From Promethearchaeia archaeon (GTDB lineage: Archaea > Asgardarchaeota > Lokiarchaeia > Sigyniarchaeales > SOKP01), in contig JAWOCD010000084.1 of the NCBI GenBank assembly GCA_046483985.1, forward strand, positions 32,001-96,000: a stretch of 64,000 bases of DNA, given 5' to 3'. The translations under genes and the position numbers were made by a program. Each line of letters begins with the position of its first letter. Position 1 is the first letter of the stretch. Shown one piece after another: positions 5,075 to 47,440 of this stretch. The notes under the pieces were generated by a model, which was not told the origin of the DNA, did no database searches, and saw only the letters and a list, made by a program, of their open reading frames with translations.

Positions 5075-5189
5075 TGCAGGAGGTGGGATTTGAACCCACG
5101 TACTCCTATGAGACTAGAGCCTCGGTCTAGCACCGGTTATCGTGTAGGCGAGATGCTCAGTCACATTGACCAGGCTTGGCGACTCCTGC
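5075..5189 (-). tRNA. tRNA-Leu(GAG) with 30-nt D-loop intron (approx. 21/22; 5136-5165)
   Basis: Acceptor GCAGGAG/CTCCTGC+A, anticodon arm CTAGA-CCGAGGC-TCTAG, long variable arm, GGTTCAAATCC; removing the intron restores GCCAAGCCTGGTCAACGGTG. Confidence 0.88.
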
Positions 5190-8034: not shown

Positions 8035-8136
8035 AGCCCTTGGGGGGATTTTCCAATTTATCCTAAATGGATAACTTTTTTGAACCCCCGACATTCTGAT
8101 TACGAATCAGACACTCCACCGCTGAGTTACAAGGGC
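8035..8136 (-). tRNA. tRNA-Thr(CGT) with 30-nt T-loop intron (59/60; 8049-8078)
   Basis: GCCCTTG/CAAGGGC acceptor, TCTGA-TTCGTAA-TCAGA anticodon arm; 102 nt minus the 30-nt insert gives a 72-nt cloverleaf with TTCAAAT loop. Confidence 0.92.
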
Positions 8137-8194
8137 ATTGCAAAAATAATTTAATGGAGCAGTAATCTTATATTCGAAACTAATAATTATTAAT

Positions 8195-9250
8195 TTGAAA
8201 AAAATTATAAATTTTATTGGAATGACGAAAAAAACAATAGCAGATCTTGGAGAAGTAAAGGTAATTGAGATTATCGAAAAGGAAATCTCAATCATAGATC
8301 ATATAAAAATCAGAGAAGATGATGCCTTCTTTTTCGATCTTACTTCGGAAATAAAACCACAAAACGGGGAGAATTTTCAACTTGTTTCCAATACAGATAT
8401 GTTAGTATCCACCACAGATGTGCCCGAAGGAATGACAAATTACCAGATCGGGCGTAAAGCGGTACTGATGAACATTAGCGATTTAATTGTAAAGGGTGTC
8501 CATCCAAAAGGAATGCTTATCTCTTTGGGAGTGCCAGGGATTTTCTTCGTGAGCGATTTCAGGGACCTTATCAAAGGTGTAATTAATTACGGAAAGGAAT
8601 GGAAGATAAAATACTTGGGGGGGGATTTAAACGAGACTAATGAGTTAATTTTAAATCCAACAGTTTTTGGGATAAAGGAAAAGGATACAATAATTCATAG
8701 AAATGGCATGAGTGGGGGGGATTTTGTATGCACTAACGGTAAGTTTGGGCTTACAGGGGTGGGTTTTGATATTCTCCTTCATAAAAAGCCGCTTCAAAAG
8801 TATTTACCTCAATATAAAAAAAGTATTAACAGCGTACTTAACAATCACAACTTGAGTAAAGAAGCATTTATATTGGCAGACCAGAAGCTTGTAACGGCCA
8901 GTATTGACTCATCCGACGGGCTCGCCAAGTCTCTGCAAGATTTAATGAGGGTCAATCCAGGATTAGGTTTTGAAATCCAATTTTGTGAGAACTTAATTGC
9001 TGAAGAGGCATCGAAATATGCAAAAGAGGTTCAAGTTTCCTTAGAGAAACTAATCTTTAATGCCGGTGAAGAATTCATTCATCTCTTTACGATTCCTCCC
9101 AACTTATTCAAAAAAGCCCAAACGGCGATAGAAAAATCCGGCGGAAATTTATTTAAAATTGGAGAAGTAATATCGGAAGATAAAATTCTTATTCGGAAAG
9201 AAAACGACACTTATGAATTAAAAAAAGGAGGCTTTGAACATTTTATTTGA
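8195..9250 (+). CDS. thiL: Thiamine-monophosphate kinase (start may be ATG at 8222)
   Basis: GE..I, DDA, TDML, NISDL, GGDL, IDSSDGL, GEEF motifs. Confidence 0.92.
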   Translation: MKKIINFIGMTKKTIADLGEVKVIEIIEKEISIIDHIKIREDDAFFFDLTSEIKPQNGENFQLVSNTDMLVSTTDVPEGMTNYQIGRKAVLMNISDLIVKGVHPKGMLISLGVPGIFFVSDFRDLIKGVINYGKEWKIKYLGGDLNETNELILNPTVFGIKEKDTIIHRNGMSGGDFVCTNGKFGLTGVGFDILLHKKPLQKYLPQYKKSINSVLNNHNLSKEAFILADQKLVTASIDSSDGLAKSLQDLMRVNPGLGFEIQFCENLIAEEASKYAKEVQVSLEKLIFNAGEEFIHLFTIPPNLFKKAQTAIEKSGGNLFKIGEVISEDKILIRKENDTYELKKGGFEHFI

Positions 9251-9307
9251 AAATTTCAATATTCTGGTAAAAAATGAGGGAAATAAAGTAGATATAAAAA
9301 GAATATG

Positions 9308-9411
9308 CGGGCTATGAGGGAATTTCAAATTTACCCGAAACGGATAATCTTTTTGAACCCTCGACCTTCAGGTTAAAAGCCTGCAGCGCTACCTGTCTGC
9401 GCCAATAGCCC
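9308..9411 (-). tRNA. tRNA-Lys(TTT) with 30-nt T-loop intron (59/60; 9322-9351)
   Basis: GGGCTAT/ATAGCCC+G, CAGG-CTTTTAA-CCTG; BHB with TTCA/TGAA helix and AAA/ATT bulges. Confidence 0.93.

Positions 9412-44070: not shown

Positions 44071-47440
<3,370 letters not shown>

Follow-up and report, generated by a model that had tools for sequence, protein, structure and literature searches.

Related T-loop introns in the tRNA-Thr(CGT), tRNA-Lys(TTT), and tRNA-Ala(GGC) genes of a Loki-type Asgard archaeon

The tRNA-Thr(CGT) and tRNA-Lys(TTT) genes of a Promethearchaeia archaeon, located 1.2 kb apart in the 64,000-nt stretch of DNA analyzed here (the window; positions 32001-96000 of contig C37, GenBank accession JAWOCD010000084.1), are both interrupted in the T-loop, between positions 59 and 60, by similar 30-nt introns. 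A third such intron is found in the tRNA-Ala(GGC) gene on another contig of the same host genome (G000; a 4.06-Mb assembly that is 97% complete). All three introns are members of a class of T-loop introns that is widespread in this archaeal family, and within that class they form a subfamily of their own. We favor, with moderate confidence, the view that the Lys, Thr, and Ala members of this subfamily are related by descent through copying, likely by gene conversion, and that they are removed from the precursor tRNAs by the splicing endonuclease EndA.

T-loop introns of the Thr, Lys, and Ala tRNA genes

The tRNA-Thr(CGT) gene occupies positions 8136..8035 on the minus strand of the window (102 nt with the discriminator), with exon 1 at 8136..8079 (tRNA positions 1-59), exon 2 at 8048..8035, and the 30-nt intron at 8049..8078. 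The tRNA-Lys(TTT) gene, also on the minus strand, spans positions 9411..9308 (104 nt with the discriminator), with exons at 9411..9352 and 9321..9308 and a 30-nt intron at 9322..9351. In both genes, the insertion splits the same T-loop sequence, TTCAAA/T: the context is GGGGG TTCAAA / 30 nt / T CCCCC in the former and GAGGG TTCAAA / 30 nt / T CCCTC in the latter. The two introns are identical in 23 of the 30 positions, as counted both by hand and by the aligner, and share a hairpin, TTATCC-ATTTA-GGATAA in Thr and TTATCC-GTTTC-GGGTAA in Lys. The initial annotation of the window, which described two introns of equal length and position at these coordinates, with that level of identity and with the TTATCC/GG(A/G)TAA hairpin retained in different host tRNAs, was therefore accurate on all these counts, the introns being recovered independently by our scanner.

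This scanner, similar in design to SPLITS, enumerates bulge-helix-bulge (BHB) candidates and checks whether the spliced product folds into a cloverleaf. Removal of the introns yields complete cloverleafs of 72 nt for tRNA-Thr(CGT) and 74 nt for tRNA-Lys(TTT). In the BHB layout, the T-stem serves as the outer helix, the intron hairpin serves as the inner helix, and the cut sites lie in two 3-nt bulges. The central helix of the Lys intron is formed by TTCA (T54-A57) and the intron segment TGAA, with 4 of 4 bases paired, and the whole conforms to the canonical hBHBh' motif with the bulges AAA and ATT. In Thr, the same TTCA faces a GGAA segment at the 3' end of the intron, which leaves 3 of 4 bases paired and one A.G mismatch. 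Minimum-energy folds retain the T-stem and the hairpin, with z-scores from -2.1 to -2.9. On these structural grounds, both inserts qualify as genuine BHB introns at the T-loop site 59/60 that are predicted to be spliced.

A BLAST search of the Lys region against its own genome revealed a match on contig C99 (85% identity over 52 nt), within the tRNA-Ala(GGC) gene at C99:45532-45668 (positions 83-219 of locus L051). This gene, which has the G3:U70 pair, carries two introns, one of 33 nt at position 37/38 and one of 29 nt at position 59/60, with the central helix of the latter paired at 4 of 4 positions, including one G.U. Like the spliced Thr and Lys tRNAs, the spliced tRNA-Ala(GGC) has a 7-bp acceptor stem and a T-loop of the form TTCAA(A/T)T. 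The T-loop introns of Lys and Ala are identical at 24 of 30 positions (alignment score of 17), compared to 23 for Thr and Lys (score of 16) and 22 for Thr and Ala (score of 13); the Lys intron is thus the most central member of the trio. One pair of the hairpin stem is U:A in Thr, U.G in Lys, and C:G in Ala, a series that constitutes the classic compensatory path. Both C99 and C37 have a nucleotide composition typical of the bin. No fourth copy was detected in the 4.06-Mb assembly by a profile hidden Markov model (HMM) built from the three introns, which assigned 20 to 25 bits to the trio and 11.4 bits to the next match. A strict regular expression for the hairpin, run over the genome, found only the Thr and Lys introns in a tRNA context.

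Each of the three genes is the sole gene found in G000 for its anticodon, and none of them was detected by ARAGORN, with or without the -i option. The Rfam tRNA model (RF00005) recognized the 5' part of the Thr gene with 32.2 bits; the Lys gene received 23.5 bits, below the cut-off, because of its intron, and the Ala gene produced no match at E<=1. Thus, T-loop introns hide essential single-copy tRNA genes from the standard finders, all three from ARAGORN and the Lys and Ala genes from Rfam.

Similarity of the introns compared to chance and to their class

On its own, the match of 23 of 30 positions between the Thr and Lys introns is not significant on the genome scale: no other of the 8.1 million 30-mers of G000 matches the Thr intron as well as the Lys intron does, yet 6 unrelated sites reach 22 of 30. 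The signal comes from the common register and context, and the introns were accordingly compared with other tRNA introns. The census of G000 comprised ∼40 tRNA genes and 29 resolved introns; it is incomplete, as the scanner failed on some genes with multiple introns (C24:76694, C37:37099, C56:8139, and a tRNA-Phe gene). Among the 406 pairs formed by these 29 introns, the three highest scores (17, 16, and 13) are those of the trio, and the next best score is 6. Eight of the G000 introns, all of 29 to 31 nt, are located in T-loops (Thr-CGT, Lys-TTT, Ala-GGC, Ser-GCT, Arg-TCG, Gly-GCC, His-GTG, and one unresolved gene), and the 25 T-loop pairs outside the trio score from -9 to 6. The five T-loop introns that do not belong to the trio (C101:27196, C24:74410, C24:76694, C8:23685, and C69:13895) have unrelated hairpins. 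Most tRNA introns of this genome, at any site, are hairpins of 25 to 35 nt.

Introns of the same kind are common in relatives of G000. A covariance model of the T-arm with its intron was built from the Thr and Lys sequences only, since MAFFT misplaced the 1-nt gap of the Ala intron; it assigns 71 bits to the Thr locus and 70 bits to the Lys locus and has matches in 107 of the 135 genomes of the family. The 84 T-loop introns recovered in this way represent at least 21 anticodon types, and 67 of them have a length of exactly 30 nt, with NTTTC or ATTTA as frequent loop sequences. In an alignment of 72 class members, which was fitted to the model and therefore favors structure, 92.6% of the cells are paired, compared to 69.7% in shuffled and no more than 66% in slid controls. 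In the same 72 members, 92% of the central helix is paired, and base 57 of the T-loop covaries with its partner in the intron (30 AU, 15 GC, and 8 GU pairs). The 30-nt hairpin mini-introns at position 59/60 are a stereotyped, lineage-wide class in this Loki-type Asgard (Promethearchaeota) family. In genus g2, the T-loop introns of tRNA-Lys(TTT) and tRNA-Lys(CTT) of G105 have both flanks in common and score 13 against each other (loci L137-L139; see also L015 of G004), and a score of 15 is reached between the Lys(CTT) intron of G129 and the Lys(TTT) intron of G105. These look like another intron family, one that crosses isoacceptors.

A far-reaching reading is that the ∼30-nt mini-introns make up one self-propagating family whose excised circles could re-insert into any RNA that offers half of a BHB, such as the T-loops of numerous tRNAs, with the trio as a recent burst. 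This would amount to active, protein-dependent intron mobility in the closest prokaryotic relatives of eukaryotes; we consider it conceivable but doubtful.

The uniformity of the class also suggests another explanation of the trio, in which three independent members would resemble each other owing to BHB pairing, fixed length, AT-rich composition, and the preferred NUUUN loop. Such convergence toward a class consensus would be consistent with the broad distribution of the class described above and with the chance occurrence of bare 22-of-30 matches in the genome. It was evaluated against a null set of 2,250 intron pairs that came from different genomes and had different anticodons but belonged to the same class; these scored -1.3 on average, with a standard deviation of 5.0 and a maximum of 15. 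The Lys-Ala (17) and Thr-Lys (16) pairs exceed all 2,250 of them, and the Thr-Ala pair (13) falls in the top 0.6%. The comparison is conservative because these class members were selected by means of the covariance model built on Thr and Lys. Further, hairpin stems are free to vary in the class, with 4 to 6 pair types per stem column, yet are nearly alike in the trio; the best partners of the Lys and Ala introns outside G000 score only 10 and 9, respectively; and all three top pairs come from a single genome.

Several comparisons nevertheless weigh on the side of class consensus and against a relationship by copying. When gapped identities are counted in place of scores, the trio (24, 23, and 22) reaches only the top 0.4 to 2.5% of the class-background pairs, the maximum of which is 25. 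The Thr intron, which scores 16 with Lys, scores 15 with the Ser(GCT) intron of G124 and 14 with the Ile(TAT) intron of genus g4, that is, with introns of other tRNAs in other genera. It is close to the class consensus, so that the Thr-Lys pair taken alone is only modestly above background, and the similarity within the trio is in part that of the class. Lys-Ala is the strong link, and of the two pairs that exceed the background, Thr-Lys is the weaker one. The subfamily itself is real, with Lys at its center. On balance, independent origin of all three introns appears unlikely, and their common descent can be considered quite probable. The initial annotation had named similarity no greater than that imposed by the BHB in unrelated 59/60 introns as an outcome that would speak against relatedness; the trio is instead at the top of the G000 list, with two of its pairs above the entire class background.

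Two other ways of grouping these introns were tried and abandoned. The bit score of the covariance model does not separate the subfamily from the class (46.4 bits for the Lys intron of G021 and 46.9 bits for Ala), because the T-arm and the structure dominate the score. A wider superfamily with CATTTCG loops, which would include the D-loop and T-loop introns of Gly-GCC and the Arg-GCG intron of G007, showed no scores above background.

Gain of the introns, probable donor, and proposed route of copying

The tRNA-Thr(CGT) and tRNA-Lys(TTT) genes flank a gene for a ThiL-like (AIR-synthase-related) protein, an open reading frame at positions 8195..9250 on the plus strand (Pfam domain AIRS, PF00586, E=1.4e-17). 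This neighborhood is conserved in the family, and 17 related genomes show synteny that includes both tRNA genes. In 14 of these 17, the Thr(CGT) gene lacks a T-loop intron, and the introns that are present in the remaining three (G002, G012, and G013) are unrelated sequences. The nearest relative, G019, is among those without the intron, and the acceptor stem and T-arm of its Thr(CGT) gene are the same as in G000. Similarly, the Ala(GGC) gene is intron-less in 10 of 12 relatives, including G011, in which the 5' exon is 97% identical to that of G000 and the T-arm is identical. As both genes are intron-less in relatives with identical or nearly identical exons, the Thr and Ala copies can be recognized from these alignments as gains in the G000 lineage, with exons apparently unchanged by the insertion.

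The distribution of the Lys(TTT) intron is different. A T-loop intron is present in this gene in 5 of the 17 relatives with synteny, several of them with a sequence very different from that of G000. In further relatives (G066, G087, and G006), the Lys intron has the core TCC-NTTTC-GGR, similar to that of both the Lys and the Thr introns of G000. Because the Lys gene often carries an intron in relatives, it is the probable donor. The divergence between the copies, 20 to 27%, is above the level observed between Lys intron orthologues in genus g2, so the copying events would not be very recent.

A Thr(CGT) intron in a relative provides a clue to the route. In contig C19 of G087, a member of genus g2, the Thr(CGT) and Lys(TTT) genes are neighbors (L109:321-368, plus strand, and L111:321-368, minus strand; 1.3 kb apart), and the last 23 nt at the 3' end of their T-arms are the same, comprising 17 nt of the intron, T60, and the T-stem; the 5' halves of the introns differ. 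The 5' half of the G087 Thr intron resembles the Thr intron of G066, whereas the 3' half that it shares with Lys resembles the Lys intron of G066. This intron looks like a recombinant mosaic and bears what appears to be the signature of non-reciprocal recombination at the DNA level, from Lys into Thr. In G000, no match to the reverse transcriptase domain (PF00078) was found at 97% completeness. Taken together, the G087 mosaic and the absence of a detectable reverse transcriptase favor gene conversion over reverse splicing.

The most probable sequence of events, then, is that an older Lys(TTT) intron gave rise to precise copies at the equivalent T-loop site in two formerly intron-less tRNA genes, the Thr gene 1.2 kb from the donor and the Ala gene on a different contig. 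The most likely route would be DNA-level gene conversion between T-arms, for which the flanking exon sequence GGGTTCAA(A/T) ... TCCC, nearly alike in all tRNAs, could act as homology. After copying, the introns would have diverged to the present 20 to 27% with the hairpin kept through compensatory changes, and the precursor tRNA would be cut at the two 3-nt bulges by EndA and then rejoined.

The proposed enzyme is represented in G000 by one protein of 200 amino acids (C32:38230-38829) with the domains PF02778 and PF01974. It is closest to the catalytic alpha subunits of crenarchaeal enzymes (3p1z_B, E=3e-35; 3ajv_B; 2cv8_A) and matches the Methanocaldococcus jannaschii-type enzyme (1a79) with only 2.5e-19; its Atlas cluster consists mostly of Promethearchaeota proteins. 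Two EndA paralogues (∼100 and ∼65 to 70 bits to PF01974) are encoded in 24 of the 24 relatives searched, in agreement with the two paralogues described for most Asgard genomes (10.64898/2026.10.13.758758). The presence of two paralogues in the family fits the broad-specificity (alpha-beta)2 type of EndA (PMC3239211).

Several observations count against this scheme. In the G000 assembly, only one of the two EndA paralogues was detected, the second being either unassembled or lost. In public sequencing runs, no read or contig from this organism covered the tRNAs, and the tRNA-exon matches that were obtained come from other organisms, with 4 to 7 differences and unlike flanks. There are only three copies of ∼30 nt, the tree of which cannot be rooted, so that the donor is deduced from distribution alone. 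No genome of the same genus was found that would allow the copying to be dated: a pattern scan of metagenomes gave 0 matches, and no relatives were recovered when the ThiL-like protein was used as the query. For gene conversion, the homology of the flanks amounts to only ∼10 nt and 5 nt. Finally, the base 5' of the intron differs, being A59 in Lys and Thr and T59 in Ala, so any conversion tract must have ended exactly at the intron boundary.

Copying could also have proceeded through RNA. In that case, the TGAA of an excised (circular) intron would pair with the TTCA of a T-loop, a reversal of the EndA and ligase reactions would insert it, and reverse transcription and recombination would return the product to the genome. 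Insertion that is exact to the nucleotide, into exons identical or nearly identical to those of intron-less orthologues, would be expected from such a process, as would the complementarity of the intron 3' segment to the universal T-loop and the presence of the Ala copy on another contig. However, surviving insertions would look exact as well under selection for a BHB that can be spliced, and a mosaic like that of G087 is expected from DNA recombination and not from insertion of a whole intron. In addition to the lack of a PF00078 match in G000, only three credible reverse transcriptases and no CCA signature were reported for the Asgard panel of Goswami et al. (10.64898/2026.10.13.758758), all of which makes an RNA-level route quite unlikely in our view. 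Three independent acquisitions from a virus, a plasmid, or the tRNA gene of another organism seem highly improbable: it has been proposed that tRNA introns can originate from mobile elements that integrate at tRNA genes (PMC3239211, PMC4033280), and class members from other genera do resemble the Thr intron, but G000 has no further copy, no Asgard copy appeared in scans of one genome per species or of metagenome contigs, no close match above background was obtained in 120 family genomes at <=2 mismatches (matches there occurred at the rate of the reversed-pattern control, which makes that search uninformative), and Goswami et al. found no association of intron gains with mobile elements (10.64898/2026.10.13.758758). 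When one genome per species was scanned for the exact pattern of the T-loop and hairpin, there were 3 matches, all in metagenome-assembled genomes (MAGs) of Bacteroidales (Bacteroidetes), at L069:697-725, L070:6475-6503, and L071:7444-7472; two of these are in one MAG, and all are probably due to chance.

Copying by gene conversion bears on the mechanistic part of the initial annotation, in which an intron family was thought to have spread among T-loops, probably by targeting the common sequence TTCAAA^T through reverse splicing or gene conversion. The spread itself holds up in the form of a related subfamily with a third member and with gains in Thr and Ala, although part of the similarity it relied on is class consensus. 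The targeting does not, as the sequence is not specific: the trio follows both TTCAAA and TTCAAT, and other class members also follow TTCGAA and TTCGAT. As to the two mechanisms, the mosaic intron of G087 and the missing PF00078 match in G000 point to the second.

The orientation of the tRNA genes around the ThiL-like gene is variable. The Lys(TTT) gene of G000 is flipped with respect to nearly all relatives: its arrangement is <-Thr ThiL-> <-Lys, and theirs is <-Thr ThiL-> Lys-> (loci L002-L020). In G019, the Thr gene is flipped instead. The possibility that recombination between the two introns had inverted the Lys gene was rejected, as it would produce chimeric tRNAs, and none were seen. 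Two short contigs in public data are identical to parts of the ThiL-like gene, one of 200 nt from a salt-lake metatranscriptome library (positions 8216-8415) and one of 225 nt from a freshwater-sediment metagenome (positions 8327-8551); these stretches are too short to indicate a habitat.

Two features elsewhere in the window may be of use for its annotation. A match to the archaeal large-subunit (LSU) rRNA at positions 44083-47434 of the minus strand is 3,352 nt long, compared to the 2,987 positions of the model; the ∼365 extra nucleotides could be rRNA introns or insertions. A class II tRNA, probably tRNA-Leu, is located at positions 5075-5189 of the minus strand (C37:37075-37189), with the acceptor stem GCAGGAG/CTCCTGC. 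Its D-loop contains an insert, and the sequence of the anticodon loop appears to be CCGAGGC, with C at position 33; the scanner requires T33, and no model was obtained for this gene.

Comparison with known systems

The transfer of introns between tRNA genes is known mainly from Thermoproteales, as the initial annotation correctly stated, at least according to the summary in PMC4033280, which covers the work of Sugahara (2008) and Fujishima et al. (2010, Mol Biol Evol 27:2233). As described in that summary, similar short BHB introns occur there in different isotypes of one genome, at non-canonical positions, and have been read as evidence of recent copying, and the hosts have a two-subunit EndA of broad specificity; the G000 trio is alike in these respects. 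Unlike those cases, it belongs to a mesophilic sediment lineage of Asgard archaea (Promethearchaeota) and is confined to one site (59/60), one length (29 to 30 nt), and three copies with 73 to 80% identity. Moreover, the recombinant intron of a relative here points to gene conversion, whereas the route has not been established for Thermoproteales.

The non-canonical site 59/60 is shared with ARMAN-2, in which an intron at this position is cleaved in vitro by a broad-specificity endonuclease and the pre-tRNA-Pro(GGG) has a strict hBHBh' motif (PMC3239211). However, the introns of ARMAN-2 were not reported to form a sequence family, and its enzyme is of the three-unit epsilon2 type, in contrast to the two paralogues of ∼200 amino acids in the family studied here.

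Heavily interrupted tRNA genes have already been described in Asgard archaea (Valentin-Alvarado 2024, PMC11291895; Goswami et al. 2026, 10.64898/2026.10.13.758758), and the present data agree with these reports in the large number of non-canonical BHB introns, their repeated lineage-specific gains, and the two EndA paralogues. The 2026 preprint, which is the sole published test of the matter in Asgard archaea, found almost no copying between tRNAs: 1.5% of its 1,062 introns were in cross-type families at >=80% identity, compared to 0.6% in shuffled sets. It noted that chance matches are common at 70% identity and called the route of arrival open. The locus described here offers a concrete, testable case, with three related copies, an intron-less "before" state, a likely donor next door, and a recombinant in a relative. 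With pairwise identities of 80%, 77%, and 73%, the trio lies at or just below the 80% threshold of the preprint, which misses families of this kind; the proper null is the background of the same class at the same site. The trio exceeds such a background, and its gain is supported by comparison with orthologues.

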